A DNA stretch of 23,431 nt from a virus (Duplodnaviria > Heunggongvirae > Uroviricota > Caudoviricetes), in the IMG/VR virus record IMGVR_UViG_3300017649_000001, positions 88,798 to 112,228 of that record. One strand, given 5' to 3'. The notes under the pieces were generated by a model. That model was not told where the DNA came from. It saw only the letters and a program-made list of their open reading frames with translations, and did no database searches. Shown piece by piece: positions 2,161-20,602 of this stretch. The number at the start of each line of letters is the position of its first letter. The stretch's first letter is position 1. Made by a program: the position numbers and the translations under genes.

Positions 2161-2174
2161 CTATCTCCGCAATC

Positions 2175-2208
2175 AATACCTAATCACCTACGTAGGCATT
2201 TAGGCATT
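2175..2208. repeat. 34-bp imperfect dyad AATACCTA-ATCACCTA-CG-TAGGCATT-TAGGCATT
   Basis: 13 of 17 symmetric positions pair by hand count; perfect core CCTACGTAGG; tandem TAGGCATT at 2193-2200 and 2201-2208. Confidence 0.75.
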
Positions 2209-2213
2209 ATTTC

Positions 2214-2242
2214 TTGCCGTAATCTCACCGTTCAGTTATATT
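2214..2242 (+). promoter_or_regulatory. Sigma70-like promoter for the major tail gene
   Basis: TTGCCG (2214-2219), 17 nt spacer, TATATT (2237-2242). Confidence 0.55.
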
Positions 2243-2255
2243 AACTAAATAGTTA
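2242..2255. promoter_or_regulatory. Palindromic box TAACTAAATAGTTA (copy 1)
   Basis: 12/12 match to TAACTA-NN-TAGTTA; intergenic, 30 nt before the tube gene ATG. Confidence 0.8.
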
Positions 2256-2285
2256 TTTAGCCAGAACGGCCAAGGAGAAATTGAA

Positions 2286-3116
2286 ATGGCATCTAGCACC
2301 AAGAATGTGAAGCTTGGCGTGTGCAAGGTCTATTATGACGGCATCGACATGGGCTTCACCAAGGGTGGCGTGGAGGTTGAAGTTCAGTCCACCACCCACG
2401 ACGTTACGGTTGACCAGCTCGGTGAAACCCCGATTGCTCAGCTTATCACCGGTCGTACGATTACGGCTTCCTGCCCACTGGCAGAAACGACGCTCGAAAA
2501 CATGATCGCCGTCATGCCGGGCGCTACGCTCGTTTCCGATGGTGTAAAGGCCAGCGGTAAGGTCACGCTCACCGGCGTTGCTGTTGCTGGCGATACCGTA
2601 CTTATCGAAGACTATCCGTTCGAGTATGCCGCAGTTCCTGCGACAGACTTTGAGGTTGCTATCGGCGCATCCGCTGCTGAAGCCGCTGAAAATCTGGCGT
2701 CGGCGATTAATGCCGCTGCTATCGAATGGTCTGCTGTTGCTGTGGGCGGCGTCGTGACGATTACCGCCAAGAAGAACGGTGTTGAGTACAACGCTCTGAT
2801 CCAGCTCGATTTCGCAACCGCTGCCAACGCGACTGCAGTCGATATCGCAGGTGGCAAGGATTCAACCAAGGCTCGCGTCGAGGTATCTTCGGGCGTCTCG
2901 ATCAATCTTCTCGACGTTGCAAAGCCGCTGCTTCTGCGTCCACTGAACACCGATGGTGAAGACGATCTGCTCATCTACCGCGCGGCTACTGCAGGTGCGA
3001 TGCAGTTCGCTTATCAGCACGACAACGAGCGTATCTTCCAGGCGTCCTTCAGTGGTTTCGCCACGGAAGACGGCAAGCTCTTCAGTCTTGGTGATCGCAC
3101 CGCGAAGGCAGCCTAA
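2286..3116 (+). CDS. Major tail (tube) protein with an internal inserted domain (276 aa)
   Basis: SD AAGGAG upstream; KNVKLGVCKVYYDGIDMGFTKGGVEVEV N-terminus typical of siphovirus tube proteins; lies directly before the chaperone genes. Confidence 0.88.
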   Translation: MASSTKNVKLGVCKVYYDGIDMGFTKGGVEVEVQSTTHDVTVDQLGETPIAQLITGRTITASCPLAETTLENMIAVMPGATLVSDGVKASGKVTLTGVAVAGDTVLIEDYPFEYAAVPATDFEVAIGASAAEAAENLASAINAAAIEWSAVAVGGVVTITAKKNGVEYNALIQLDFATAANATAVDIAGGKDSTKARVEVSSGVSINLLDVAKPLLLRPLNTDGEDDLLIYRAATAGAMQFAYQHDNERIFQASFSGFATEDGKLFSLGDRTAKAA

Positions 3117-3129
3117 TCCAATAATTCAC

Positions 3130-3155
3130 GTGACTGGTGTGCAATCACCAGTCAC
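3130..3155 (+). repeat. Perfect 10-bp hairpin GTGACTGGTG-TGCAAT-CACCAGTCAC
   Basis: Read directly; no U-tract follows, so not called a terminator. Confidence 0.8.
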
Positions 3156-3169
3156 TAACTCATTAGTTA
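3156..3169. promoter_or_regulatory. Palindromic box TAACTCATTAGTTA (copy 2)
   Basis: 11/12 match; abuts the hairpin; 18 nt before the chaperone ATG. Confidence 0.75.
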
Positions 3170-3187
3170 ACATCAAGGAAACCGGAA

Positions 3188-3535
3188 ATGAATGAAGTTG
3201 TCATCAAAGTGGATCGCGTTATCGAGGGTGATTTCAAGCCGTTTGCGATCGAACTGAAGGGCAAGAAGCACTACATCAAGGAAGCCACCATTCGCGACTA
3301 CATCGCAAATGAGAAAGCCTTGAAAGAGCTTCAGTCGGCAAACGCCGTCGAACGCGAAATTGAAATTCTGATGGATATGGTTTGCCGCGCATTCCCGACC
3401 GTCACCTTCGACGATCTTTCCGACCTTACACCATCTCAGCTCGTCGCCTTCGTTAATGACATGCGCGTCCTTTCGGGCGAAGCAACTCACGCTGACGAGA
3501 AGTCCGTGGAGGTGGATCCCGCTTCGGGAAAGTAA
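3188..3535 (+). CDS. Tail assembly chaperone (lambda gpG-like, 115 aa)
   Basis: Between tube and tape measure genes; ends in G GGA AAG TAA, the lambda G/T slippery heptamer. Confidence 0.85.
   Translation: MNEVVIKVDRVIEGDFKPFAIELKGKKHYIKEATIRDYIANEKALKELQSANAVEREIEILMDMVCRAFPTVTFDDLSDLTPSQLVAFVNDMRVLSGEATHADEKSVEVDPASGK
3526..3532 (+). other. Programmed -1 ribosomal frameshift site G GGA AAG
   Basis: X XXY YYZ heptamer in the correct phase; the -1 frame (GTA AGA CCT GGC CGG...) is open through the 3568..3900 ORF. Confidence 0.88.
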
Positions 3536-3900
3536 GACCTGGCCGGATCAAGTCCATCGATTACGACTTGATCTGCGCCAAAATCATGCGGGAGTTCCGA
3601 CTTTCGTTCGATGAGACTGTCAATATGCCGGTGCGCCGCTTCTGGTGGATGCGCGATATGGTCGGAAGACTTCGGGCGGATGATATTCTCAAGCTGAGCA
3701 ACCTGGGGATGCTGGCACTTGGAAGCGGCGAAAGTCGAACTGAATTGTTCGAAAGCCTGATCGAGACTGCCGGCTCCGATTACGAAGTAGAGGAAATTCA
3801 TAGTGCCGATCCGATTATCGATCCGCGTACTGGACTGGACGTAAACTTCGACAGACAGGGACTTAGTGAACTGAAGGCGCTTACCTCCGCATTTGACTAA
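3532..3900 (+). CDS. Frameshift-accessed C-terminal chaperone (gpT-like part of a 237-aa G-T fusion)
   Basis: Track ORF 3568..3900 starts at a TTG without an SD but is in frame with the -1 shift; F(D)ETVNMPVRRFWWM resembles gpT-type segments. Confidence 0.8.
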   Translation, partial: VRPGRIKSIDYDLICAKIMREFRLSFDETVNMPVRRFWWMRDMVGRLRADDILKLSNLGMLALGSGESRTELFESLIETAGSDYEVEEIHSADPIIDPRTGLDVNFDRQGLSELKALTSAFD

Positions 3901-3911
3901 CTAAATAGTTA
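3898..3911. promoter_or_regulatory. Palindromic box TAACTAAATAGTTA (copy 3)
   Basis: 12/12 match; its first TAA is the chaperone stop codon; 15 nt before the tape measure ATG. Confidence 0.8.
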
Positions 3912-3926
3912 TTTAAGGACGGCGCC

Positions 3927-6900
3927 ATGCAGAACGTTGCTTTTAACCTCCAACTAAATAGTGCGGCTTTTGATACTGCACTCAGTGGTGTCGCCAAAAG
4001 CCTCACCAATCTGCAGAAGCAGATCAGCCAGGTTAATCGTAACCTGAGCAGCATCACCAAGAGCGCCCAGAACACAGGTTCGGCTCTCGACGGTGCATCC
4101 GGCTCCATGCGTGGCTTCACTGCAACCGCTCGCGACCTGACTATTGTCGCGGGCGGTGTCTCGCTTGCCATCGGCGGTATGCGTCTTGCTGCCGAGTCGT
4201 GGATAGGCTCGATCATCCGCACGAACGCCGAAATGGAGCGACTTCGTTTCCAGCTCGCCGGCATGAGCAATGCGGCAGATCCCATGAAGGAGGCGCGACA
4301 GCAGGTTGAAGGTCTTCGCGATATGGCGAAGCAGACCCCGTTCGCGCTAAACACGCTCTCCAATTCCTTTGTTAAGCTGAAAGCAACTGGCGTCGATCCG
4401 ATGAATGGATCGCTTCAGGCGCTCGCTGACGGTGTTGCAGCCTTCGGCGGTGACGACGAGTCATTCAAGCGTATCACGCTCGCCATCAGTCAGATGAGTG
4501 GTAAGGGTGTGATCCAGATGGAAGAACTGCGCCAGCAGCTTGGTGAATCCATGCCGCGAGCAGTTGAACTCATGTCGCGCTCGATGGGCGTGTCGATGGG
4601 TGAACTCACCAAGATCATCAGCACCGGGCAGCTAGAAGCCAAGCGCAATCTTCAGACGTTGTTTGAGGAAATCGAACGTACTTATGGCGGTCGCTCACTC
4701 GCCATGATGCAGACCTTCTCCGGTCAGGTCTCGCAGCTCAAAACGAACCTTCAGACACTGGCTACAAATGAAGGCGGCTCGGGCTTTTTTGACCAGATCA
4801 AGGGGCTTCTCGTCGAGCTGAACGACTTCCTCAGCACATCAAAGGCTGATGCGCTCGCCACTTCGCTTGGTAAGGGTCTTCAGGGCGCTGTCGGTTACGC
4901 TGTGGATTTTGCGCAGGCGCTCTATAGTGTGAGCGGCGCACTCCGGGATATTGCATACCTGGTTGGCGGTGTCGCCGCGCTCAATCTCGTTTTCACCGGT
5001 CTGAACAGTTCCATTTCAGCCGTGGCCAATTCCTTCGCAACGTTTGGTCGTGTTCGTCAGGACATGCAGGATGTTGGAGCTGCAACCAGTCTTTTCGCCA
5101 CGCAGCTCTTTAAGACCGGCCAGACTGTTGATGCGGTCAAGATGGGCGCCGTCGGGCTTGCTGGCGCGTTGCGCGGGGTAGGTATGGCGCTCACCGCCGC
5201 GATGCCATTGATCTTCGCGCTTGGCTCTGCTGTCATACTTGCTGCTGATTATTTCGACGTTTTTGGCACGAAAGCTCAAAAAGCGTTCGAGGATTTCACA
5301 AAGTTTGGCGCTGAAACGCTTGAAGAAGCTCGTCGCATCTCGGACGAACGCGTCAAGATTGTAGAGGATGAAGTTGCGCGCAAGAAGCGGGCGCTGGAAA
5401 CGGCAGAGCGCTTCGCCAATGCGCCCATGGCTGCTCAGTACGGCACGACCACTTCTCCGGAAGAGGCAGCTAAAAATCTGCTGGACGCTGAAAAGAAGGC
5501 TGCAGAGACCCGCCTCGCCATCGAGGAAGGCAAGAAGCAGACCATCGAGAGGCTCTCCCGAGAAGAAAACAACCGGATTGAGCGCGGCCTGAACGAGCGT
5601 CTGACCAAGCAGAAGAACGCTTACGACCAGGAAATGAAAGACCTGGGCGATCAGTATAACAAGCGTATGGAAGCTGCCAAGGAGGCGGGTGAATCTCAGC
5701 GCGAGATCCATGACAGATACGTCAAGGATATCGCCGCATCGCAGAAGAAGCTTCTCGAGGCCGAACTCTCCACCATCGACAGCTACATCAAGGAAATTGG
5801 CTCAAAGACTGTCGGCGCCAGCAAGGATCAGGTCGCTGTCTACCAAAAGTCTATCGATGATCTGAACAAGAAGCGACAGGCGACCCAGAGCCGTCTTTCC
5901 TCCATCAACGCTTCCAGCATTGCGCCCGTCATGCTCTCCGGCAAGGGTGACAACACAGAAAAGCGGATGGAGAAGGGCGCCAAGCTCCTCGGCACGCTCG
6001 TCGGTGATTACAAGGATCTCCAGGCGGAGATCGCGGGTTCATCCGGCGCTCTGGAAAAGCTCAACTTCGAGCTTGAGAATGGCAAGTATGGTAGCGCCAA
6101 GGAAGGTGCGGAAGCCTTCGAAGAGATGGCCGACGCGCTGCGGAATGCCACAATCGCCAAGGAAGCCTTCCATCAGATTGACAAGTCGAACGACAAAGTT
6201 TCGTCCGACATTGAGCACGCTCGCGTCAAGCTTCTGGAAGAGCAGATCGACCTTCAGAATAAAATCGCTGGCAAGACCGAGGATATCACCGAAGCCGAAC
6301 GCATTCGGATGCGTCTCAACAATGGTGTCTACAAGGGACTTGGATCCGATACCGAGCGTTTCATCACCGAGCTGGAAGCTACGCTTGTTCCGATCACGCT
6401 GCAGGCTACCGCCTTGCAGAATGTCGGCGACGTTTCTCGCACCAACGCTTTCGGCGATGCGACCGCAAATGCCATCGATAACACCAAAACCAAGATCGAA
6501 GGTCTGACCACCACGGTCAAGACGCTGCGTGATACCATTGCCGGCGTCAACTTCGACAGTATGGGTACGCCAGGCCAGGGGATTCTCGGTAATATTTTCG
6601 GTGGCATCAACACCGCCATGAACGGTTTCCGAGACGCTATCAGTGGCGTGACGGCATCGGCGAACCTCATGTCGAAGAACATGAAGGTGTTTGGTAACCC
6701 TCTTGAGAAGGGCTGGAAGGAACAGAACATCGTTGGCGTCAAAGCTAACAATGGCATGTCCGTTCAGGTCCACCGAGAGGCTGCTTCTGCATTTCAGGGC
6801 TTCATAAACGATCTTCTGGCTACCGGTTACAAGATCAACTCTCTCGGTGGATACAACCCTCGTCTGAAGGTGAACGGGAAGGGTCTGTCGGAGCACGCCT

Positions 6901-8594
6901 TTGGCAACGCCATCGACATTAATCCTGCCCAAAATCCTTACGGCAAGAACCTCATCACGGACATGCCGGCCAACATTAACGAGCTGGCGGCGAAATGGGG
7001 ACTTTCCTGGGGTGGTAACTGGAAAAGCGTCAAAGACGCCATGCATTTCGAGTGGACCGGTAAAAACGGATCTGCTGCGAATAGCAATATCTCTTCCGCT
7101 GATAAGGCTCAGATCGCATCTGTAGTCGCGCCCGAGATAGCTCAGGCTCTCCAGCCCGACGCCATCATCAAGCAAATGCGAGAAACGATTGCCGACGTCA
7201 CCGGTAAGATCGATACCAACCTTGCTGATCTTGCAAAGCAGGACGCCAAGAATGCTGATCTGCGCACGCAGGCGGCAGACGCAACGTCCATGCGTAGTCT
7301 GCAAAACATTCTCAACGGGCTTAACCTGAAGGAAGACGGCTTCAGCAAGGCTCGCTCGACTTTCTATAATCAGGTCCGCGACGGCAAGATCGATCCGCAA
7401 AATCGTGATCCGGAAAGCGCTCAGTACGAAAAGCAGCGGAAAATTCTCGATGAGATTGAGGCTGCCGAGAGACGCATCAAGGACGCAAAGCAGGCTCAGG
7501 CTGATCTGGACAAGGCGCAGAACTCGGCGACGGACCGACTTGCCTCGTCCAAGGAAAAAATCGCCGCGCTCGAAGAGAAGCTGAAAAACCCGCACGCAAT
7601 CGTTGATGATGCAGATATCCGTCGTGCCAAGCTTCTGTCCGAGGAGCTGAAAAACGCGGCAGAAGCGAAGTACGGTAAGGGGACCGAAGGGTACAACCAA
7701 GCCGTAATGCAGGGTGACGAGCTGGTTAAGTCTGCACTCCGGCAGCAGGGTCTTGAAGCTCAGATTGCCGCTAATAAGGAAATCGAATCCGCTCAGCGGG
7801 CCACGATGACCAAATCTCAGCTTCGCCAAAAGGAAAAGCAGGATGCGCTTGCAACCCTTGCCGCTCAGGAAGCTGCTATGCGGAAGGCTGGCCTCAGCGA
7901 AATATCAATCGCTGAGACAGTGGCGGCTCGCAAGAAGCAGATAGACGAACAGTACGGCTCCACGATTAGCAAGACATTCAGCGACACGGTGAAGTCGTGG
8001 ACCGATATGGAAACGAATTTCAGCAACTCGCTTGACGGGATGATGGGTTCGTTCGCTGACGGCCTGACGAACCTCATTATGGGCACCGGTAATCTGAGCG
8101 ACGCACTGAAAGGTATCGCCGCGCAGTTGGCGAACATGGCCGTGAAATGGGCAATCGGATCTGTCTTCGAAAAGAAGGGCGTTCCTACGCGTCATATGGG
8201 AGGCACGATCGGCTCCAGCATGGGCATGACGAAATCAATTTCGCCGCTTGCCTTTATCGGTGCGCCGAAGTTCCACACCGGCGGTGTCGTTGGACAGAAG
8301 TTGTTGCCGAGCGAAGTGCCGATCATCGCCAAGAAGGGCGAGGTCGTTCTGACCGCCGCTCAAGCCAAGGCTATGGGCAAGAACGGCACGATGACAGGCT
8401 CGGGTTTCAATAACTTCAATATCAGCGCTCCTGTCACTGTTAACGCGAGCGGCGGAACGAAAGAGCAGAACTCCGATCTCGCTAACCAGACTGCCAAAGC
8501 GATGGAGTCCACCATGCGTGGCATTGTTGCGGACGAAATTCGTAAACAGAGCCGTCCTGGAAACTCTCTGAACACCCGTAGCCGTAGGCGGTGA
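3927..8594 (+). CDS. Tail tape measure protein with embedded M15 peptidase (1555 aa)
   Basis: N-terminal tape-measure domain (AKQTPFALNTL...ISQMSGKGVIQMEELRQQLGE), long helical body, lambda-H-like C-terminus (PKFHTGGVVG...EVPIIAKKGEVVL). Confidence 0.96.
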   Translation: MQNVAFNLQLNSAAFDTALSGVAKSLTNLQKQISQVNRNLSSITKSAQNTGSALDGASGSMRGFTATARDLTIVAGGVSLAIGGMRLAAESWIGSIIRTNAEMERLRFQLAGMSNAADPMKEARQQVEGLRDMAKQTPFALNTLSNSFVKLKATGVDPMNGSLQALADGVAAFGGDDESFKRITLAISQMSGKGVIQMEELRQQLGESMPRAVELMSRSMGVSMGELTKIISTGQLEAKRNLQTLFEEIERTYGGRSLAMMQTFSGQVSQLKTNLQTLATNEGGSGFFDQIKGLLVELNDFLSTSKADALATSLGKGLQGAVGYAVDFAQALYSVSGALRDIAYLVGGVAALNLVFTGLNSSISAVANSFATFGRVRQDMQDVGAATSLFATQLFKTGQTVDAVKMGAVGLAGALRGVGMALTAAMPLIFALGSAVILAADYFDVFGTKAQKAFEDFTKFGAETLEEARRISDERVKIVEDEVARKKRALETAERFANAPMAAQYGTTTSPEEAAKNLLDAEKKAAETRLAIEEGKKQTIERLSREENNRIERGLNERLTKQKNAYDQEMKDLGDQYNKRMEAAKEAGESQREIHDRYVKDIAASQKKLLEAELSTIDSYIKEIGSKTVGASKDQVAVYQKSIDDLNKKRQATQSRLSSINASSIAPVMLSGKGDNTEKRMEKGAKLLGTLVGDYKDLQAEIAGSSGALEKLNFELENGKYGSAKEGAEAFEEMADALRNATIAKEAFHQIDKSNDKVSSDIEHARVKLLEEQIDLQNKIAGKTEDITEAERIRMRLNNGVYKGLGSDTERFITELEATLVPITLQATALQNVGDVSRTNAFGDATANAIDNTKTKIEGLTTTVKTLRDTIAGVNFDSMGTPGQGILGNIFGGINTAMNGFRDAISGVTASANLMSKNMKVFGNPLEKGWKEQNIVGVKANNGMSVQVHREAASAFQGFINDLLATGYKINSLGGYNPRLKVNGKGLSEHAFGNAIDINPAQNPYGKNLITDMPANINELAAKWGLSWGGNWKSVKDAMHFEWTGKNGSAANSNISSADKAQIASVVAPEIAQALQPDAIIKQMRETIADVTGKIDTNLADLAKQDAKNADLRTQAADATSMRSLQNILNGLNLKEDGFSKARSTFYNQVRDGKIDPQNRDPESAQYEKQRKILDEIEAAERRIKDAKQAQADLDKAQNSATDRLASSKEKIAALEEKLKNPHAIVDDADIRRAKLLSEELKNAAEAKYGKGTEGYNQAVMQGDELVKSALRQQGLEAQIAANKEIESAQRATMTKSQLRQKEKQDALATLAAQEAAMRKAGLSEISIAETVAARKKQIDEQYGSTISKTFSDTVKSWTDMETNFSNSLDGMMGSFADGLTNLIMGTGNLSDALKGIAAQLANMAVKWAIGSVFEKKGVPTRHMGGTIGSSMGMTKSISPLAFIGAPKFHTGGVVGQKLLPSEVPIIAKKGEVVLTAAQAKAMGKNGTMTGSGFNNFNISAPVTVNASGGTKEQNSDLANQTAKAMESTMRGIVADEIRKQSRPGNSLNTRSRRR
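6732..7061 (+). other. Peptidase M15 (Zn-dependent peptidoglycan peptidase) domain within the tape measure
   Basis: S-E-H-x6-D at 6888-6917, W-G-G-x-W, and D-A-M-H-F-E with His at 7044-7046. Confidence 0.85.
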
Positions 8595-8596
8595 GA

Positions 8597-8610
8597 TAAC
8601 TAACTCGTTA
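8597..8610. promoter_or_regulatory. Palindromic box TAACTAACTCGTTA (copy 4)
   Basis: 11/12 match; 19 nt before the gpM-like ATG. Confidence 0.75.
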
Positions 8611-8629
8611 GTGCAAAGGATGATCTAGA

Positions 8630-8983
8630 ATGCCGCTTCCAACATTCAACCCAATAGTTCGTCCCTCTCCAGGGACGAACTACAGTCGAACCGTCAATCT
8701 TCTGAAAGCTGAGTTTGGCGATGGCTATAGCCAGAATACGCCAAAGGGCCTCAATCACATTCGCAAGAAGGTGAAATTGAAATGGGACGCGCTAACGCTT
8801 GAGCAGCGCAACCAGATCGAGGAGTTCTTCGCCTCGATGCAGGGGTATCTGCCGTTCTATTACAAACCGTATGGCGAAGACCGCACTTTGAAGTGGACCT
8901 GCGAGGAATGGTCTTCGGATATCGACGGCGGTGTTTTTACATTCAGCGCCGAGCTGGTTCAGTCTTTCACCAACGAGGTATAG
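8630..8983 (+). CDS. gpM: Minor tail / distal tail protein, lambda gpM family (117 aa)
   Basis: AEFGDGYSQ...GLN...FF...QGYLPFYYKP...W.C.EW signature; follows the tape measure. Confidence 0.92.
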   Translation: MPLPTFNPIVRPSPGTNYSRTVNLLKAEFGDGYSQNTPKGLNHIRKKVKLKWDALTLEQRNQIEEFFASMQGYLPFYYKPYGEDRTLKWTCEEWSSDIDGGVFTFSAELVQSFTNEV

Positions 8984-8987
8984 CAAA

Positions 8988-9016
8988 AAGAAAAGGAGGC
9001 ATTGCCTCCTTTTCTT
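8988..9016. terminator. Bidirectional rho-independent terminator
   Basis: 13-bp stem AAGAAAAGGAGGC-ATT-GCCTCCTTTTCTT between convergent genes, giving a U-tract in both directions. Confidence 0.85.
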
Positions 9017-9650
9017 ATAGATTAGAGCCGTAGGTCTGAATGCAAGAAATGTCGCTCATCCACTGACCTTCATGCTTATTCCGCTTCAATTGCTCCGCAT
9101 CTGCTGCGATTTCTGACTTATAAACGTCCTCGAGTGCGGCAATGCTGAAAGTTTTGTAATTCTTCTGGAAGTCCGTAAGATCATCTGTGGCGTCGAGCAA
9201 TGTTCGCTCATGATCTTTAAACCGACGTTCCATTTCTTCCGCTCGGACCTGATGCATCGCAATACAAATATTCGTCTTGCCGAAGTCTTCACTTCCGGTC
9301 ATTCCAATCAGATTGGCGCAGCGTCCGACGACGCCTGTTTTTATATCAGTCACCAGATCGGTTACACTTTTGGACTTAGCGTCAAAACGAATATCAGATT
9401 CTCGACTGTAAAGATCCGAAATAGGCTGAGCTAGAATAGCGTTCACGCGCCTCAGTTCGGCGGGAAGATTCATAAGTGCCACAACTGGCGTTTCAGTTTT
9501 ATTCGCGACGATATCGGCGACCTGATCGTCAATCCATTTGGCGGCCGCTTTACAGGTATCCTTGCTGATTTCCAGTTTAGTCGCCGTCTGGCTCTCAGAG
9601 CATCCAGTTATCGAAAGTGCGGCAATCAACGCAATAACTAATTTGTTCAT
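9015..9650 (-). CDS. Predicted lipoprotein of unknown function (211 aa), moron-like
   Basis: MNKLVIALIAALSITG-C: short basic n-region, hydrophobic core, lipobox ITGC; SD GAGGA 5 nt upstream on the minus strand; only recognised minus-strand gene. Confidence 0.82.
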   Translation of the reverse strand: MNKLVIALIAALSITGCSESQTATKLEISKDTCKAAAKWIDDQVADIVANKTETPVVALMNLPAELRRVNAILAQPISDLYSRESDIRFDAKSKSVTDLVTDIKTGVVGRCANLIGMTGSEDFGKTNICIAMHQVRAEEMERRFKDHERTLLDATDDLTDFQKNYKTFSIAALEDVYKSEIAADAEQLKRNKHEGQWMSDISCIQTYGSNL

Positions 9651-9732
9651 ATCATCCTCATTTGCATCTGGCTTCTACCAGAAAATATAGCCGCGGCAAG
9701 AAGGACATTTGCGGCAACCGCTCTCCCAATAA

Positions 9733-9746
9733 TAACTAAATAGTTA
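9733..9746. promoter_or_regulatory. Palindromic box TAACTAAATAGTTA (copy 5a)
   Basis: 12/12 match in the divergent gap between the lipoprotein and gpL genes. Confidence 0.8.
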
Positions 9747-9757
9747 TTTATTTAATC

Positions 9758-9771
9758 TCACTAATTGGTTA
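9758..9771. promoter_or_regulatory. Palindromic box variant TCACTAATTGGTTA (copy 5b)
   Basis: 10/12 match, 25 bp downstream of copy 5a. Confidence 0.5.
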
Positions 9772-9798
9772 TTATCTCTCTGATTAAAGGGACATGTT

Positions 9799-10509
9799 AT
9801 GGCGACTATTCAGACAGAGCAGCAAAGCCTCACACCATCCGGTATCGTTTCTCTCTTCACATTGGACGCAACCTCCTTGGGCGGTCCTGTCATGAACTTT
9901 GTTCAGGCAACGAAGCACAAGTCCTTGGTGAAGTTCGGTGGTGTCGAATATCAGCCGATAGACGTCGAATTTAGCGGACTGGAAACGTCGGGGCAGGGCG
10001 CTCTACCAACTCCGACTATTCGTATGGCCAACACCGACGGTATTCCCCAAGCAATGGTGAATACGTGGGGAGACCTCACGGGCTGTCCTCTTACTCGCGT
10101 TCGCACGCACGTCCGCTTTCTTGATGGAGAGCCTGACGCGGATCCATCTGCGGCATATCCTGCTGATTTTTTCCGTATCGAGCGTAAATCGTCCGAGAAT
10201 AACGTCTACATTGAGTGGGAGCTTTCCACGTCTATCGATCAGGAAGGCAAAATGATCCCCGGAAGGACGATCATTCGCGAAACCTGTTTGTGGCGTTACC
10301 GCTATTTCGACGTTTCGAAGGGCAAGTTCGACTATTCGAAAGCTCAATGCCCCTACGCCGGGAACAAATATTTCGACATTAACGACCGCGAGGTCAGCGA
10401 TCCGGCTGATGACGTACCGTCTCGCCGACTGAATTGCTGCAAGACCCGTTTTGGCGAAGGCGCTGCATTACCGTTTGGTGGCTTTCCTGGTGTGAGGAGA
10501 ACGCAATAA
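9799..10509 (+). CDS. gpL: Minor tail protein L (lambda gpL family, 236 aa)
   Basis: F.G.EYQPID.EFSGLETSGQG.LP.PT...AN, C.W.YR and LPFGGFPG motifs; SD AAGGGA. Confidence 0.93.
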   Translation: MATIQTEQQSLTPSGIVSLFTLDATSLGGPVMNFVQATKHKSLVKFGGVEYQPIDVEFSGLETSGQGALPTPTIRMANTDGIPQAMVNTWGDLTGCPLTRVRTHVRFLDGEPDADPSAAYPADFFRIERKSSENNVYIEWELSTSIDQEGKMIPGRTIIRETCLWRYRYFDVSKGKFDYSKAQCPYAGNKYFDINDREVSDPADDVPSRRLNCCKTRFGEGAALPFGGFPGVRRTQ

Positions 10510-14900: not shown

Positions 14901-16625
14901 AGCGATCTGGCTGAGTACGACCTGCAGATCGCCCAAGCCGGTGGCAATTTTGTCAGCTTCCTACTCACAGAAACGATGTGGGAAAGCGACGTTCTTCCGG
15001 GCGTAGTTTACACGATCAAGCTTCGTGCGCGTGATAAGAACGCGAACAGTTCTCCATTTACGGATGAAATCCGACACGAGGCAGCGAAGGACGTTACACC
15101 TCCGGGTGCAATCACGAATGCGCGCATCGCTATCGGTCTTACATCGTTGTGGCTGAACTGGACCAATCCTTCCGATGACGATCTGGATCACATCGAAGTT
15201 TGGGAAGCGGCTGAAAATGATTTCACGAAGGCCGAACTTGTCGGCGTCACTGCCGGCAATTCGTTCCCCCGTACTGGTTTGGACAATCAGGTCGAGCGGT
15301 TCTATTGGCTCGTAGCTGTAGACACATCCGGCAACAAGTCGGCAGTTTCCGCTGTTGTGAGTGGAACTACCGCCGAGATGCCGGACGCAAAGCGTGTCAC
15401 GACGGTCGGTTTTGTTCTAAAGCCAAACGAACCTGATGCTGACAAAGTCTCCTGGGACGCTTTCCAAATTTCGTTTGGGAAGCCCGGCGGCGTGGTAACT
15501 ACTGAGAATGTCGAAGCGGGTAACGCAACTTGGCCTGGTGATGATCTCTACCTCTATTACGTCGAGGGAACCAACACTCTGAGATCGACGACTTCGGTCT
15601 CGACAATGTTCCTGCAGTACGGTCACCCTTTGGCCGTCTACCGCGGCGGCACCGATGTTGAGCTTTCGGGCGGTAAAACGCTTATGTCCGGCAAGGATAT
15701 CATCGCAGGCACCATCGGCGCCGAGCAATTGATTGCTAACGCGGCCATCATCACCGGTACAGCGCAGATCGCCGACGCCATCATTACAAGCGCAAAGATC
15801 GTCGAGCTGGATGCGGCTAAAATTAAGGCTGGCTCAGTTCTGTCCGAGACCGTTGTGGTTGGTGATGGTGGCGATGCACTGAAAGATATTGCCGATAAGG
15901 CGAACGATCCTGCTGGCCAGATCAATAAGGGCACCACGATCATTCAGCCCGGTAAGGTGCAGATCAACGGAAAGACAACTCTTTCTAGCTGGATATCTGG
16001 TAGCGATAATACCAGCATTGACGGCGGCAAGTTGGCAACCGGCTCGGTGAAAGCAAATTCGGCCGAGTTCGGGATGCGCGGTATCACCGTTGATGGCATT
16101 ACGTTCGAGCATAATAGCCCAAGCGCTAACAGAGTTTCCTGGACGGCAGGCGCGATCACTTATGTCGATGATGACGGCAGCTTCAAAACTGCAAATATTA
16201 CGGCAAGCAACGCCGCCTGGACGGCGGGCACGCTGTGGCTTTATTGGGTAAAGGGTGAGACGGTAATCCGTGCGACGACTGTCTACGCTACCGCGAATGC
16301 GACGAACAATATCATTCTGGCCACCTATAAGGGCACGGTGTTCTTGTTTGCCGCTTATGGACGCACGATTGTCGACGGCGGGCAGATCAAGACGCAGAGC
16401 ATCCAAACCGAGCAGCTCGCTGCCGGTGCGGTTACAGCTCAGGTTATTAGCGTCACATCGCTGTCTGCCATTTCTTCGAACCTTGGCGATATTCGCGGTG
16501 GCTCCTTGAACATTGCTGACAAGTTCATCGTCAACTCCGCGGGCCTCGTAACCGTGCGTTCTGCCGTTAGCGGCGCCCGGCTCGAGTTGACCAGCAATAG
16601 GCTCTTGATCGTGGATAATACTTGA
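11922..16625 (+). CDS. gpJ: Central tail fibre / host specificity protein J (1567 aa)
   Basis: ATGA overlap; EVLSEGPIVGL, WTDNPAWIFYDL, YCDQLVP...EPRFTYNG, GCTSRGLAHRYGKW motifs, then several FN3-like repeats and a beta-rich C-terminus. Confidence 0.96.
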   Translation: MIHATNFDPILSRMNANPFRGRGGGKGSGGGGDNNTLRSKAHMRLIEVLSEGPIVGLVDGKKSIYLDQTPLLGADGVENFENVIMEEHHGYPDDTPFVGFSAVENTISVDTQVKASSGGVVRTISNPDVTGVKVTVRYPALVKNDSKKGLKKTSVSYAIDLRSYGGDWTEVLKHDENNQKTVSAFQRQFRVKLPSTGAPWDIRVRRITPDSTDDNLQNETWFDSYTTIIEGRFTYPYTAAVAIEVNAEDMGSSMPARVYDVEGLIVSVPSNYDARLRKYVGVWNGTFKQSWTDNPAWIFYDLIKNDRYGLGEFIDADMIDKWSLYTIAQYCDQLVPSGFRDQNGNDVMEPRFTYNGVIQNRDEAFFVLQSITRAWRGMAFWAIGQVFATADMPADPVKLVTPANVINGEFEYSSTAIKARHSVVMVTWNNPDNFYQSEIEPVIDSKLLHKYNWREKQVTLEGCTSRGLAHRYGKWIIDSEQHETETLTYQASWDHADLRPGDLIAVSDPTKAMIRAGGRVVSHSGNEITLDADFEANAGESYWLMMTMPDGSVEKRPIGYWIDDNICVVSQPFSATALANAMFTITGTDIVPRQYRVLSIEEEEANIFRVTALQHDPQKYDRIEKGIVFDPLPYNRPDKTAKPPTGLKVTENGYVSNGKSFHTLTCSWTPPTNQTTRGYYITVDDPDGNTITLGFTENTSIDLDNVTGGLYTFKVQSINYVGTVSKAATFDFEAAGPEGFAKPSVEYVQLIDNPGSTEFTSRRLSFEWKNKFPTSMSAISGETDSYSPYYRANRVRIYRASDDVLLREAMVVGTQFTYEFEANESDNLAKGGQQPARNLRVAVSVLDTVGRESNPVSVVFNNPPPAAISPIYNVWENEIWLGYTKPTDADFEGVMMWVEEESGYDPATTAPAYEGPNNPHTFKLDYESVYYVRIAAYDAFGKTGLNYSSEVPITTLSSGADMEPPKTPTGLAAVSKLVNGRVRMTVTWNKNSESDLAEYDLQIAQAGGNFVSFLLTETMWESDVLPGVVYTIKLRARDKNANSSPFTDEIRHEAAKDVTPPGAITNARIAIGLTSLWLNWTNPSDDDLDHIEVWEAAENDFTKAELVGVTAGNSFPRTGLDNQVERFYWLVAVDTSGNKSAVSAVVSGTTAEMPDAKRVTTVGFVLKPNEPDADKVSWDAFQISFGKPGGVVTTENVEAGNATWPGDDLYLYYVEGTNTLRSTTSVSTMFLQYGHPLAVYRGGTDVELSGGKTLMSGKDIIAGTIGAEQLIANAAIITGTAQIADAIITSAKIVELDAAKIKAGSVLSETVVVGDGGDALKDIADKANDPAGQINKGTTIIQPGKVQINGKTTLSSWISGSDNTSIDGGKLATGSVKANSAEFGMRGITVDGITFEHNSPSANRVSWTAGAITYVDDDGSFKTANITASNAAWTAGTLWLYWVKGETVIRATTVYATANATNNIILATYKGTVFLFAAYGRTIVDGGQIKTQSIQTEQLAAGAVTAQVISVTSLSAISSNLGDIRGGSLNIADKFIVNSAGLVTVRSAVSGARLELTSNRLLIVDNT

Positions 16626-16633
16626 CCCATATT
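16605..16633 (+). promoter_or_regulatory. Sigma70-like promoter embedded in the 3' end of J
   Basis: TTGATC (16605-16610), 17 nt spacer, CATATT (16628-16633). Confidence 0.5.
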
Positions 16634-16646
16634 AACTAACTCGTTA
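16633..16646. promoter_or_regulatory. Palindromic box TAACTAACTCGTTA (copy 6)
   Basis: 11/12 match, identical to copy 4; 10 nt before the next ATG. Confidence 0.78.
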
Positions 16647-16656
16647 TTTATTATTC

Positions 16657-17052
16657 ATGTCAAATCGTATCCTTATCGGCGATCTCAATGGCGAAGAAGT
16701 GATCCGGGTTGCAAAACCCGGATACAACGTCGCTGATGTCAATTTGAGCATCGATGGATTGTCGTTTGACAGTCGATGGCAGGCGGTAGGCAAAATCTTG
16801 CTGTCGGGTAAAACCAGTCTACCAAGCAGAACGGCAAGTGATCCGGTGTATTCAGTTACGGTCTGGTATGGCCTCGCGCTGAAGAGGCCGCCATTTGCTT
16901 TCGCTTATGTTCGGGACATAATCCCGAATAGTTCGCCAGGAGCGTGGCAATTAGGGCCGCCACAAGTCTTTCAAGATCGGCTCGTATTCTCAACCGTTCC
17001 GGGCGGCTACAACTTCGCCAAAGATATTTCCTATTTTGTGATGGCGATCTGA
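16657..17052 (+). CDS. Post-J small protein, paralogue 1 (131 aa), putative tail tip accessory
   Basis: MSNRILIG...IRVAKPGYNV...LSFDS N-terminus shared with the next two genes. Confidence 0.75.
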   Translation: MSNRILIGDLNGEEVIRVAKPGYNVADVNLSIDGLSFDSRWQAVGKILLSGKTSLPSRTASDPVYSVTVWYGLALKRPPFAFAYVRDIIPNSSPGAWQLGPPQVFQDRLVFSTVPGGYNFAKDISYFVMAI

Positions 17053-17462
17053 TGAGTAACCGCATTCTCATCGGAGAACGATACGCCGGCAATCTAGGCG
17101 CTTGGGTGTCAAATCCCGGCTTCGATGTTCTGACGGCAGACGCGCAGGATCTCTCCTTTGACATGAACCGGGTGCCCTTTCGTGTGCTTCAGAAAGGGCA
17201 GTTCAACCATGTAGCTAATCAGGATTTCAACTACACGTATCGCGTTACGTTTCCGTCAATAGGATACCCGCCGATTATTCTCGGTCACATGATCAACACC
17301 TCTGATCCAACCTATTGGCTCGATGATGCCCAGTTCTCGTTCGATCAGATTCAGGAATCGTCTTTTCTACTTAAAATGTGGTCGTTTGGCTCTATCGGGG
17401 AAACCTACAAGTACAATCATACCTTCACCTATTACGTCACGAACATCCCGTTGGTGCAGTGA
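17052..17462 (+). CDS. Post-J small protein, paralogue 2 (136 aa)
   Basis: Start reassigned to ATG 17052 (TGATG overlap); MSNRILIG...AWVSNPGFDV...DLSFD. Confidence 0.75.
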   Translation: MSNRILIGERYAGNLGAWVSNPGFDVLTADAQDLSFDMNRVPFRVLQKGQFNHVANQDFNYTYRVTFPSIGYPPIILGHMINTSDPTYWLDDAQFSFDQIQESSFLLKMWSFGSIGETYKYNHTFTYYVTNIPLVQ

Positions 17463-17896
17463 TGGTAAATCGTGTTGTGATCGACCCCGCTTACGGTTTT
17501 CGAATTTCAAAGGCCGGTTTTGATGTGTTCTCGGCTGCGGACAAGGATCTCCTTTTTCGCGACACTTGGAGATTGCTGCGCGTTGCGAAATCCGGCGCAA
17601 TCTGGATTCCAGCAGCCAACGGCTCAAACCAGCAGTACGGCTCTCAGACGATCCCGCACGGCGTTACGCTAAGCTCCAACAATTTCATCGCCGGGTGGGC
17701 ACTCGGTGGCGGCGGATATGGATACTCGGTCGATTATTTCATCGTCGGCGGCAATGGCGGCGGCTCGTTATTCGACAATAACAACTATTACATTCATGCC
17801 GCTTTGGACCCGTGGAATATGCGCCTGGACTATCAGATTGGCGGCGTTTCCGGCTTCGGTGGCGCAGAACTTAAATACGTAATTATGGACTATTGA
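17462..17896 (+). CDS. Post-J small protein, paralogue 3 (144 aa)
   Basis: Start reassigned to ATG 17462 (TGATG overlap); MVNRVVID...FRISKAGFDV...DLLF. Confidence 0.75.
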   Translation: MVNRVVIDPAYGFRISKAGFDVFSAADKDLLFRDTWRLLRVAKSGAIWIPAANGSNQQYGSQTIPHGVTLSSNNFIAGWALGGGGYGYSVDYFIVGGNGGGSLFDNNNYYIHAALDPWNMRLDYQIGGVSGFGGAELKYVIMDY

Positions 17897-17899
17897 ACG

Positions 17900-18412
17900 A
17901 TGATCATTGAGTACGATAATTCCGGGCGCATCATTCATATGATCTACGATCCGGTCGATCCGACGATCGTGGATTTTTATACGTCTGAGGATTTTGAGGG
18001 TAATGTTTTGAACCTTGAGCCAATCCCTTGGCCGCCAACTCAGGATATCGACATTGATACGGGTCTTCCGGTTGTCGAAATTATCGATGAAGAAGAAATT
18101 CCAGTTATGTCGTCCAAGGGTAAAGACTATGCCAAGGTTGATATGACGGGTCAGTACATCAAGGATGGCGCTGTAACACGCAGGCCAACCTTTAATTTGC
18201 CTGAAATGACGGCTGCAGAAGTCGGCGATACGCTTCGCTTTGATGACCTTCCTCTGGGCACCGTTATATTTCTAGATGATGAACGTCACGAACTCTCCGA
18301 AAATCAGCTCACTCTGGAGTGCGATATGGCAGCCGATTACACGATTAAATTCGTGTGCTGGCCTTATATGGATGCGGCGGTAAAGGTTACGGTCAATGAA
18401 GCTCAGCCTTAA
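17900..18412 (+). CDS. Acidic hypothetical tail-associated protein (170 aa)
   Basis: Starts 3 nt after the previous stop and overlaps the next gene; function assigned from context only. Confidence 0.6.
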   Translation: MIIEYDNSGRIIHMIYDPVDPTIVDFYTSEDFEGNVLNLEPIPWPPTQDIDIDTGLPVVEIIDEEEIPVMSSKGKDYAKVDMTGQYIKDGAVTRRPTFNLPEMTAAEVGDTLRFDDLPLGTVIFLDDERHELSENQLTLECDMAADYTIKFVCWPYMDAAVKVTVNEAQP

Positions 18413-18782
18413 AAAGAACATCGACGCCTTGCGCGAAGGCGCTCTCGCGCAGATCGCAGTTGGCGCACAAGAAGCCTTAGCGAGATACAAATCTCCGAGC
18501 GAGTATGTGGCCAAAGCACATGCTCGAAAGCAAAGTGAACATGCTATTTATAAGCAGGATTCATCGCTAACCGCAGACGAACTGCCAATCATGTTCAGTG
18601 AGGCAGAAGCGCTTGGAACAGATATTCATACTGTGGCCGCCATCTGGGATCAGAAGATGAAAGAGGAGAGCCTGATTATTTCGCGAATTGAGGCAATCCG
18701 TTTAACTGCAAACAAAAAGGTGCGCGAGGCTACAACACCAACTGCAATAAATGAGGTTATAGCCCGGATCGAGTGGCCGTAA
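18396..18782 (+). CDS. Putative tail fibre assembly chaperone (DUF4376-like, 128 aa)
   Basis: Helical; ends ...IEAIRLTANKKVREATTPTAINEVIARIEWP, a pattern seen in fibre chaperones; family call is from recall. Confidence 0.5.
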   Translation: MKLSLKKNIDALREGALAQIAVGAQEALARYKSPSEYVAKAHARKQSEHAIYKQDSSLTADELPIMFSEAEALGTDIHTVAAIWDQKMKEESLIISRIEAIRLTANKKVREATTPTAINEVIARIEWP

Positions 18783-18817
18783 CTCAGTCTAAAATTGATT
18801 TCTGCCTTCTGTTGTGG

Positions 18818-18831
18818 TAACTAATTAGTTA
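18818..18831. promoter_or_regulatory. Palindromic box TAACTAATTAGTTA (copy 7, fully self-complementary)
   Basis: 12/12 match, with a second overlapping 11/12 copy at 18822-18835; 26 nt before the first lysis-cassette ATG. Confidence 0.8.
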
Positions 18832-18857
18832 GTTACCATTCCAACAGGAGTCTATCT

Positions 18858-19205
18858 ATGGCTGACACTCCGCGTCTTCTGGTTACGCCAGTAACCGTTG
18901 GCTTTTTTCTGTCGATTGTCAGCGCTCTGACAGTTGGCTGGAACGCAGTTGGCTACTTCAAAGGCATCGAACAAAAGAACGTCGAACAGGATTACCGCCT
19001 TGATCGCAGTGACAAGGATAATGAATCCATGCAGGCGACGATGAAAGAGAACAGCAAAGAAGTTTCCTCTTTGCGTGAGTCCATCGTCCGGCTGACGACA
19101 GTCATTGAATCCTCGACCGCCACAAAGCGCGCTGACTTTTTCCTCGGACCCCATTACCCGCAGAATTTAACTGCATCGGAGGACAAGTATGCGCCTCCGC
19201 GATGA
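18858..19205 (+). CDS. Single-TM membrane protein with coiled-coil tail (115 aa), possible holin/antiholin
   Basis: SD CAGGAG; hydrophobic residues about 7-32, then a charged heptad-like region; first gene of the lysis cluster. Confidence 0.6.
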   Translation: MADTPRLLVTPVTVGFFLSIVSALTVGWNAVGYFKGIEQKNVEQDYRLDRSDKDNESMQATMKENSKEVSSLRESIVRLTTVIESSTATKRADFFLGPHYPQNLTASEDKYAPPR

Positions 19206-19422
19206 CTGGAAACACATTCTCCGACACGCCTGGTCAGTACGACTGATCGTAATTGCCGCGCTGCTGTCCGCAGCCGAGGCGGCATTCCCATTCATGGAAG
19301 ATTATCTCGGATTGCCTCCACAGAAGTTCGCGCTTCTGACGGCGCTGATTACATTTCTGGCAATCCCCGCTCGCCTGATGGCTCAGAAATACACAATCAA
19401 GGATAAAGATGATGGCGAGTAG
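19189..19422 (+). CDS. Putative holin (two TM segments, 77 aa)
   Basis: SD GGAGG; W..I.R.AWSVRL..IAALLS.AE pattern, two hydrophobic stretches, charged C-terminus; overlaps the lysozyme start. Confidence 0.75.
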   Translation: MRLRDDWKHILRHAWSVRLIVIAALLSAAEAAFPFMEDYLGLPPQKFALLTALITFLAIPARLMAQKYTIKDKDDGE

Positions 19423-19897
19423 ATTGAAAAACATCGCTAAGGGCGTCACCGGCGTAACTGCTGCCGGCGCTCTTGCTATTTCACTGGTTGGCGGTTTCGA
19501 AGGTCTTCGTTTGACCGCCTATAAGGATATCGTGGGTATCTGGACTGCTTGCTACGGCGAGACGAAAGGTATCAAGCCTGGCATGAAATTCTCCAAGGAG
19601 ACCTGTAACAACATGCTCATCGATAGTCTGGTCGAGCATGAGCAGGGTATGCGCAGATGCCTGGTTAACCCGGACAAGGTCCCGGTCGAGACCTACATCG
19701 CAAATTTGTCACTGACCTACAACATCGGCACCGGCGCTTACTGCAAGTCAACAGCGGCCCGCAAGCTCAACGCTGGCGACATTCGCGGCAATTGCGAGGC
19801 TCTGACCATGTTCAATAAGGCTGGCGGTAAGGTCGTAAAGGGTCTTGTCGACCGCCGCGCCAAGGAGAAGGCCCTCTGTCTGAAGGGGCTATCCTGA
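19409..19897 (+). CDS. GH24 lysozyme, SAR-type endolysin (about 162 aa)
   Basis: Catalytic E-x8-D-x5-T (FEGLRLTAYKDIVGIWT); Gly/Ala-rich weakly hydrophobic N-terminus. The second ATG (19412) has the better SD spacing. Confidence 0.93.
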   Translation: MMASRLKNIAKGVTGVTAAGALAISLVGGFEGLRLTAYKDIVGIWTACYGETKGIKPGMKFSKETCNNMLIDSLVEHEQGMRRCLVNPDKVPVETYIANLSLTYNIGTGAYCKSTAARKLNAGDIRGNCEALTMFNKAGGKVVKGLVDRRAKEKALCLKGLS

Positions 19898-20250
19898 TGG
19901 GTCTCATCTCCATCGAGGGTAAATCTGTGATCTGGCTGGCGGCGACCGTAATTATGGTCGTCGCAGTCATCTCCGGTGGGGTCTTTGTTTATAACCGCAT
20001 CTACGACCGCGGCTATCAGGCCGCAAAAATCGAAGATGAGGCACTTATGCAGAGAATGAAAGAAGCCAATGAGCGGGCCATTACGGCTGCCGAAAAAGCG
20101 CTTCGGGAAGACCTAGCCAATCTGAAGCTCGAAAAGGACAAGCTGGAAAATGAAGTCAAGCGCCTCGATGATCAGGCTGATCAGGATCCTCATGCTGACA
20201 CTGGCGGCATCAAGCGCAGCAGCGTGCAGCGTCTCAACGCCATCCGCTAA
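19897..20250 (+). CDS. Inner-membrane spanin (Rz-like, 117 aa)
   Basis: TGATG overlap; one N-terminal TM followed by coiled coil; directly after the endolysin. Confidence 0.8.
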   Translation: MGLISIEGKSVIWLAATVIMVVAVISGGVFVYNRIYDRGYQAAKIEDEALMQRMKEANERAITAAEKALREDLANLKLEKDKLENEVKRLDDQADQDPHADTGGIKRSSVQRLNAIR

Positions 20251-20497
20251 GGCTCCAATCAATCTGCCCGAGCTTCCGAAAGAGCTTTACTGCGATCCTG
20301 AGAAGGACGAGACATGCGCGCCAGTATGTCCTTATGCAACCGAAATTCCCGACCGAGACATAAATCAGTCTGAAGTAGAGAAACTGTGGCGCCAAGACCG
20401 GGTCAGTCTGAAAACATGCCGTGATAAGCTTACTAGCACTGTTAAATATTATCAGGTTCTTCGAAGCAATCTGTCAGCTCCCGAGCCAACTCTCTAA
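20168..20497 (+). CDS. Outer-membrane spanin lipoprotein (Rz1-like, about 109 aa)
   Basis: Start reassigned to ATG 20168: MIRLIRILMLTLAASSAAA-C (Cys codon 20225-20227), proline-rich after the lipobox; overlaps the i-spanin 3' end in another frame. Confidence 0.78.
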   Translation: MIRLIRILMLTLAASSAAACSVSTPSAKAPINLPELPKELYCDPEKDETCAPVCPYATEIPDRDINQSEVEKLWRQDRVSLKTCRDKLTSTVKYYQVLRSNLSAPEPTL

Positions 20498-20543
20498 TTA
20501 GTATATATCTTAAAAGGTATGTTGATAATAATTAGAGAGTTGG
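20486..20543. repeat. Perfect 15-bp inverted repeat CCAACTCTCTAATTA / TAATTAGAGAGTTGG with a 28-nt AT-rich spacer
   Basis: Arms at 20486-20500 and 20529-20543, read directly. Confidence 0.85.
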
Positions 20544-20584
20544 TCGCTCATCCCGGTTCCAAAACCGAGCTATGTAATGTAAAC

Positions 20585-20602
20585 TAACTATTCAATTAGT
20601 TA
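20585..20602. promoter_or_regulatory. Degenerate box TAACTA-TTCAAT-TAGTTA (copy 8)
   Basis: Both perfect half-sites but 6 nt apart, equivalent to two overlapping 10/12 copies; 16 nt before the next ATG. Confidence 0.55.

Follow-up and report, generated by a model that had tools for sequence, protein, structure and literature searches.

A palindrome dispersed over the gene junctions of a rhizobial phage-plasmid: candidate sites of a single dimeric regulator

Which factor reads a short AT-rich palindrome that stands before one structural gene after another in a tailed bacteriophage is the question raised by the stretch of DNA investigated here, a window of 23,431 nucleotides that corresponds to bases 88798-112228 of the 112,228-bp IMG/VR virus record IMGVR_UViG_3300017649_000001 (class Caudoviricetes). 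The genome has a 123-bp terminal overlap, a GC content of 52% and almost all of its genes on one strand. A preliminary description of the window had reported a 14-mer, TAACTANNTAGTTA, at eight junctions between morphogenesis and lysis genes, and had proposed a late-gene regulon under one DNA-binding protein encoded outside the window. Here, we argue on sequence grounds that the palindrome is very probably a DNA site bound by a protein, and we lean, by a modest balance of probability, towards reading the whole set as binding sites of one phage-encoded dimeric regulator, which would use some of them as repressor operators and others as roadblocks.

Within the window, all nine copies that had been listed were recovered. 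The scan located TAACTANNTAGTTA exactly at positions 2242, 3898, 9733 and 18818 (exact copies in 100 dinucleotide-preserving shuffles: 0), with one mismatch at 3156, 8597 and 16633, and with two mismatches at 9758, 20585 and additionally 9635; the mismatch scan gave 17 register-overlapping matches, where 0.18 were expected. The placement between genes, shortly before start codons, was likewise as described: every copy lies in a gap between open reading frames (ORFs) or begins on a stop codon, and its end lies 10-52 nt 5' of the next start (30, 18, 15, 19, 52/27, 10, 26 and 20 nt from the end of the 14-mer at the eight successive junctions). All eight true plus-strand gaps downstream of the neck genes carry a copy, and the overlap-coupled junctions of K, I, J and the endolysin gene have none, as had been claimed. 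The gene names used for these junctions were upheld by PHROG matches for an immunoglobulin-domain tail tube, the tape measure, gpM- and gpL-like minor tail proteins and the endolysin.

Across the full genome, the family-wide register of the palindrome is T-AACTAA-N4-TTAGTT-A, 1-2 nt off the 14-mer, and an ATAG or TTAG in its central four positions yields the 14-mer form. There are nine exact 14-mers and 11 exact copies of AACTAA-N4-TTAGTT; the latter motif occurs at 28 sites when at most one mismatch is allowed and at 44 when two are, nearly all of them intergenic. All 28 of the 28 sites with at most one mismatch are intergenic, in a genome of which intergenic DNA makes up 10.3%. The sites are also enriched over an AT-matched intergenic background, with 25 observed within intergenic DNA versus 0.03-0.25 expected from order 1-3 Markov models of that same DNA. 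A site is present in 43 of the 87 gaps of at least 25 nt, and the gap beside repC has none. The eight junctions of the window belong to a genome-wide set of about 45 junctions. One of the sites along the genome is orthologous to a site 5' of the ribonucleotide reductase beta-subunit gene in the plasmid pLM21S1, and others stand 5' of an AAA/CobS-like gene; in relatives, sites also precede genes for a primase, dnaB, an RNA ligase and a gp32-like protein. Since the same palindrome precedes replication and nucleotide-metabolism genes genome-wide, the proposed late-gene regulon was not borne out.

At the nucleotide level, the window as a whole matched no phage record, and relatives were found by protein search. 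The gpL protein retrieved the Rhizobium phages B1VFA, V1VFA-S and RHph_X66 at 67% and RHEph10 at 59%, plasmids of 115-120 kb from Sinorhizobium (pLM21S1), Rhizobium, Shinella, Pararhizobium and Methylobacterium, and SSU5-like Klebsiella plasmids at 37%. The closest relative is G001 (gpL at 76%), and G002 is an IMG/VR contig. Judged by these protein similarities, the source virus, which comes from a soil metagenome, is a member of the Rhizobiales phage-plasmid group that includes B1VFA, pLM21S1 and RHEph10; this is the RepC/ParA group of phage-plasmids described before (PMC12509600, PMC5537653). Near-identical DNA was found only in DNA runs of soil and sediment metagenomes, and no RNA run was among those listed.

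At first sight the palindrome seemed not to be conserved in these relatives, as the 14-mer of the window is absent from B1VFA, pLM21S1 and RHEph10 and has a single near-match in the Shinella plasmid. This impression was overturned by palindrome counts showing that each lineage has a motif of its own. B1VFA, pLM21S1 and G002 lack the window's motif and each contain AAGTAA-N4-TTACTT in 22-30 exact copies; G001 contains 29 copies of TAAAYRTTTA versus four of the reversed control, RHEph10 at least four exact copies of the AATCAA-N2-TTGATT type, and the Shinella plasmid 13 copies of TAAGT-N8-ACTTA. The Logan contig whose helix-turn-helix (HTH) protein is nearest to that of the window's genome has an intermediate motif, CTAAA-N6-TTTAG / ATAACTAAATAGTTAT, with four copies of the first form; the contigs of two other HTH homologues (P0023 and P0009) are too short to show motifs. 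The different AT-rich dyad that the preliminary description had mentioned for SSU5-type phage-plasmids does exist in SSU5, as AAACAA-N-TTGTTT at 20 sites (16/20 intergenic), alongside AGGTAA-N4-TTACCT / TAAGT-N4-ACTTA at 16 sites. Our search of the literature on B1VFA, pLM21S1 and SSU5 turned up no account of these repeats.

While the motif changes by lineage, the junctions are kept. Among the seven genomes compared, a site precedes the tube gene and gpL in 7/7, with two copies at gpL also in pLM21S1 and G002; the tape measure gene is preceded by a site of the respective lineage motif in 6/7, and the first lysis gene also in 6/7, the seventh being G001, in which no orthologue of that gene was found. 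The junction orthologous to the last one in the window (site 8) carries a site in pLM21S1, G001 and G002. K, I, J and the endolysin gene are not preceded by a site in any of the seven genomes. By crude ORF calls, 72-85% of the relatives' sites are intergenic.

The position of the sites relative to promoters bears on what a bound protein would do there. In the AAGTAA group, the palindrome comes after 8-10 of the 16-17 plus-strand GCKYTAYAW boxes, which are -10-like (GCGCTATAA), in most cases at a constant spacing of 3 nt, and would therefore span the transcription start. Each genome has three orthologous TTGnnn-17-TAnnnT promoters with the palindrome in their spacer, including one 5' of gpL. 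At the tube junction of B1VFA and pLM21S1, a TTGTCA-18-TATTGT lies directly 5' of the palindrome, in the same position as a sigma-70-like match in the window, TTGCCG-17-TATATT (2214..2242, plus strand), which ends exactly where the first site starts and is the sole plus-strand match of the promoter scan beside a site in the window. Several sites, for instance the one 5' of the tape measure gene, have no recognisable promoter. Sites that lie over or just after -10-like boxes, or within a 17-nt spacer, suit a repressor better than a late activator. From this placement we infer that the regulator is probably a repressor that keeps the plasmid-prophage silent. Of the earlier proposal of one DNA-binding protein encoded outside the window, the part that holds is a dyad fitting a single dimeric regulator, enriched and at conserved junctions; its restriction to late genes does not, and a late activator, one of the two roles it had allowed, is the less suitable.

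The leading candidate for the reader of the palindrome is a 147-aa HTH protein encoded beside repC (genome 12375-12818) and hence outside the window; an HTH protein of 130-150 aa lies next to and divergent from repC in all seven genomes. A word-based protein search found only one relative of the candidate, at 90%, and an exhaustive search found 160 distant ones; 40/60 homologues match Pfam HTH_3, and a profile of the family matches the immunity repressor 8bny (E 4e-6) as well as the 434 repressor and Cro. The AlphaFold (AF2) model of the candidate has a predicted local distance difference test score (pLDDT) of 88, and its N-terminal part superposes weakly on HTH proteins of the XRE type (C.BclI, SinR, lambda repressor), none of its Foldseek matches reaching E 1e-3. 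Predicted as a homodimer, the candidate scored 0.58 versus 0.00 for the best control, a mark reached by 20/30 solved homodimers and 1/23 solved monomers, although HTH dimers are common among solved structures and part of this score may reflect likeness to them. The prediction runs agree in at least 72% of contacts, with a partner pLDDT of at least 77, and the predicted interface (residues 51-131) leaves the HTH free. The recognition helix reads NANMISMF here, N[QP]NMITML in the AAGTAA group, SPSILSTL in G001 and QSNMVTMI in RHEph10. Taken together, these features suggest the protein beside repC as the reader, with chances that we put slightly short of even.

Several observations weigh against a single dimeric repressor or against this candidate. 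The sigma-70 promoter matches of the window do not exceed chance (7 versus 13.9 in shuffles), and the overlap of sites with promoters therefore rests mainly on the relatives. Some sites directly precede terminator-like hairpins, for example after the capsid gene, an arrangement that the model leaves unexplained. The candidate HTH protein itself has no Pfam match. Since the lineages differ in all of their proteins, phylogeny confounds the link between this protein and the motif; nor is there a simple recognition code, since Shinella, with a helix (NNANFISM) similar to that of the window's genome, has a motif of the AAGT type. In all four genomes analysed for this, conservation is stronger in the left half-site than in the right one, which a perfectly symmetric dimer does not predict. 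Finally, between the window's genome and pLM21S1 a second phage protein, which resembles sigma factors, is as diverged (36% identity) as the HTH protein (32%).

These last two points also stand on the side of an alternative that we consider unlikely, namely that the palindrome is a positive promoter element, either the box of a phage activator or, in the form TAAsTAA, a -10-like element for the phage's own small protein of the sigma-70 family. Models for such an element exist in the Lpa-dependent late promoters of P1, which carry an inverted repeat near -22, the Mor- and C-dependent promoters of Mu, and T4 gp55 reading TATAAATA. The sigma-like protein (208 aa, genome 16688-17314, L055:6688-7314) matches Sigma70 region 2 (Pfam 2e-10), and its gene, directly 3' of CobT/CobS-like VWA and AAA genes and 5' of dnaE, is found in all seven rhizobial genomes. 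The G001 motif moreover contains TATAAATA-like strings, and sites lie 10-50 nt 5' of many gene starts. However, an inverted repeat is needless for a sigma element or a one-sided activator box, and in a genome with nearly all genes on one strand, a -10-like element that is symmetric would start antisense transcription at some 45 places. The many sites over or downstream of -10-like boxes, or in a spacer of the optimal 17 nt, would be poor places for an activator, and as early replication genes are covered besides late ones, the sites define no late class. In addition, SSU5 has related dyads but no homologue of the sigma-like protein by tblastn; its HTH match is marginal only.

Less probable still is a role in RNA, in which the palindrome would form a short hairpin 5' of the ribosome-binding site and be there for RNA processing, for stabilising the transcript or for binding a translational repressor. 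The position of the sites, 8-50 nt 5' of start codons in what would be leader or intercistronic RNA, would allow this, as would those sites (such as that of the tape measure gene) that have no promoter nearby. In the AAGTAA group the palindromes can form stems of 7-8 bp with a mean minimum free energy of -5.1 kcal/mol. In the window's genome, however, the predicted hairpins are marginal (mean -3.4 kcal/mol), and in G001, with a mean of -2.0 and 59% of its sites weaker than -2 kcal/mol, they are mostly absent. Mismatches in one half are compensated in the other at only 2/49 mismatched positions in the window's genome and at none in three relatives. The half-site centres are 10 bp apart, the stem sequence is constant within a genome and the central four bases vary; a fixed stem with a free loop is the reverse of most protein-RNA hairpin recognition, and copies in promoter spacers would not be transcribed from that promoter at all. 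One-sided mismatches, weak hairpins and a fixed stem around a free centre thus fit a dimer reading two half-sites and count against selection for pairing.

Very improbable, finally, is that the sites, which are AT-rich islands in genomes of 52-60% GC and lie at module junctions, are targets of a nucleoid protein of the host, for instance a silencer of the MucR/Ros type, or are passive (three-frame stop insulators, for which the (TAAC)n(GTTA)n version in the window has stops in all three frames of both strands, or recombination boundaries of modules), as B1VFA and RHEph10 infect the same host genus (Rhizobium) and yet differ in motif, which argues for a phage-encoded rather than a conserved host reader, and as a motif that is uniform within a genome and changes in concert between genomes speaks for a specific reader and not for AT-richness in general. 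The three-frame stop insulator was rejected, since TAAAYRTTTA of G001 has only one stop per strand. Sites of host factors (IHF, CtrA, the SOS box) were considered by their consensus sequences and not matched, no scan having been run.

Read as sites of one dimeric repressor, the set is closest in its mode of action to two phage repressor systems with many dispersed sites, those of Cluster A mycobacteriophages and of P1. The immunity repressor (gp71, Rep) of L5, Bxb1 and other mycobacteriophages of Cluster A has 20-30 oriented sites, mostly outside promoters and with a lineage-specific consensus that tracks the repressor (PMC6550527). The rhizobial sites resemble these stoperators in their number (about 45 here versus 20-30) and in their spread over early and late regions, mostly in short intergenic gaps and partly in promoters. 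At least four motif types follow lineage here, and the HTH recognition helix differs alongside them, an association that is confounded by phylogeny. In contrast, stoperators are asymmetric 13-bp sequences oriented with transcription, whereas the sites here are palindromes of 16-18 bp with a free centre and a mild left-over-right bias. The candidate reader is an unrelated protein with an HTH of the Cro/C1 type, and binding and elongation block have been shown for L5 and are inferred here. Among the Cluster A phages, too, there are some that exist as plasmids with parABS.

In phage P1, a single repressor of a plasmid-prophage, C1, acts on 22 dispersed operators and controls lytic replication and, via Lpa, the late genes; its operator is an asymmetric 17-mer, ATTGCTCTAATAAATTT (PMC8546580). 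The plasmid-prophage lifestyle and the need for many dispersed sites are shared with P1, but the motif here is a palindrome of different sequence, and in P1 the late genes do not each have a C1 site of their own, their control being indirect, by way of Lpa. Unlike the box of an Lpa-type activator of late promoters, moreover, the rhizobial sites are not confined to late morphogenesis and lysis operons. As both the Cluster A and the P1 system use asymmetric sites and unrelated proteins, the system is a member of neither, with the limit that no search for C1 homologues was made. Closer in type of site are the Cro/CI-type (XRE) repressors of lambda, 434 and P22, whose operators likewise consist of inverted half-sites separated by about one helical turn, the centre being weakly constrained. 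The candidate has a predicted dimer interface in its C-terminal part and resembles HTH_3 proteins by its homologues and family profile; lambdoid repressors, however, have two or three clustered operator regions instead of some 45 junctions that include positions inside operons. Finally, AGGTAA-N4-TTACCT / TAAGT-N4-ACTTA of SSU5 is very similar to the rhizobial AAGTAA-N4-TTACTT, but SSU5 has two motif families where the rhizobial genomes have one.

Taken in the 16-bp register, the individual sites of the window can be described in order. Site 1 (AACTAAATAGTTATTT, 2243..2258; 14-mer 2242-2255) lies 28 nt 5' of the tail tube gene. Directly 3' of that gene, a GC-rich hairpin read from the sequence (GTGACTGGTG-tgcaa-tCACCAGTCAC, 3130..3155, plus strand) abuts site 2 (CACTAACTCATTAGTT, 3153..3168; 14-mer 3156-3169), which is 20 nt 5' of the chaperone gene; the hairpin is missing from the terminator scan because it has no T-run, and the matches of that consensus scan in the window were not above chance. 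Site 3 (AACTAAATAGTTATTT, 3899..3914; 14-mer 3898-3911) is 13 nt 5' of the tape measure gene, and the TAA at 3898-3900 within its 14-mer is the stop codon of ORF 3568-3900. The tape measure protein (3927-8594, 1555 aa) has as its best PHROG match phrog_1768, labelled endolysin (9e-202), with lysozyme-like matches at about residues 986-1218, and its Shinella orthologue is annotated as tail tip lysozyme; from these matches it appears to have a built-in cell-wall hydrolase.

Site 4 (AACTAACTCGTTAGTG, 8598..8613) lies 17 nt 5' of the gpM-like minor tail gene. Between this gene and the gpL-like gene there is a reverse-strand ORF (9015-9650, 211 aa) with a strong terminator of 13-bp stem (9016-8988), and a degenerate copy of the palindrome (TAACTAATTTGTTC, 9635..9648) is found at its 5' end. 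The same junction is a gap of only 50-80 nt in B1VFA, pLM21S1, RHEph10 and the Shinella plasmid, because of which the ORF looks like an inserted moron; its product had no PHROG match and no significant Pfam match. Site 5 (AACTAAATAGTTATTT, 9734..9749) occupies the divergent gap 5' of the gpL-like gene, followed by a degenerate second copy (TCACTAATTGGTTA, 9758..9771) 27 nt 5' of that gene. Site 6 (AACTAACTCGTTATTT, 16634..16649), 8 nt 5' of the first gene after J, is within a TTGACC-17-TATTTA that was seen by eye and is not among the matches of the promoter scan. Site 7 (AACTAATTAGTTAGTT, exact, 18819..18834) lies 24 nt 5' of the first gene of the lysis cassette (endolysin gene at 19409-19897, PHROG match), and site 8 (AACTATTCAATTAGTT, 20586..20601) lies 18 nt 5' of ORF 20619-20972, which precedes a long fibre-like ORF.

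Other elements were seen beside palindromes elsewhere in these genomes. Just before the window (genome 88084-88150), the major capsid gene is followed by a TTGnnn-17-TATTAT with the palindrome in its spacer and, within 3 nt, by a GC-rich hairpin with a T-run; the same arrangement of promoter into terminator is found in B1VFA (60122-60190) and pLM21S1. In the AAGTAA group, a conserved block of about 45 nt, GCGCnCAnnACCTGA-n-GCACTCC-N11-13-GCGCTATAA, stands 5' of many palindromes on the plus strand (B1VFA 487-20053, pLM21S1 12418-52928; loci L009-L018), but does not stand out in the window's genome. Hairpins form in its first part, with stems that vary between copies and an ACCTG loop that is kept, and the block may be a second, lineage-specific promoter or regulatory element. 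In the minus-strand block of the window's genome (66-77 kb), the half-site variant CACTAA/TTAGTG is favoured, for instance as the perfect palindrome CACTAATCGTTTAGTG at 72309, and it also occurs near the HTH gene (genome 12888); such sites may form a separate class of lower or higher affinity.

Under the favoured reading of the set as sites of one dimeric repressor, the two AACTAA half-sites, set about a helical turn apart around four nearly unconstrained central bases, would each be contacted by one monomer. Copies over core promoter elements would act as classical operators, and copies that follow a stop codon and precede a ribosome-binding site without a visible promoter would, in the manner of stoperators, be roadblocks to read-through. 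All sites together would silence the genes for replication, morphogenesis and lysis while the element lives as a RepC/ParA plasmid-prophage, and the half-site sequence would drift together with its reader in each lineage and thereby set immunity groups.

More tentatively, and with somewhat less confidence than we place in the HTH candidate, this picture could extend to a supergroup of phage-plasmids of about 100-120 kb, from SSU5 to those of the Rhizobiales, each run by one master repressor with 30-50 palindromic sites per genome, some of them in-operon roadblocks, and with a half-site "code" (AACTAA, AAGTAA, RTAAA, AATCAA, AGGTAA) diversified into immunity groups. If true, this would be an undescribed, palindromic counterpart of the mycobacteriophage stoperators with a reader of the Cro/C1 type, and dense genome-wide control by operators and roadblocks, so far a speciality of mycobacteriophages, would have arisen independently with a symmetric dimeric reader. 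Phage-plasmids of this size are common in rhizobia and enterobacteria, some with resistance genes, and how some 100 kb of lytic genes are silenced is understood only for P1. One motif, which changes from lineage to lineage, stands at nearly all regulated junctions. If the palindrome is the site of a repressor, it would offer a direct handle on the switch between lysis and lysogeny, make immunity groups predictable from sequence and provide a ready map of transcription units for a family of phages in which most genes are unannotated.

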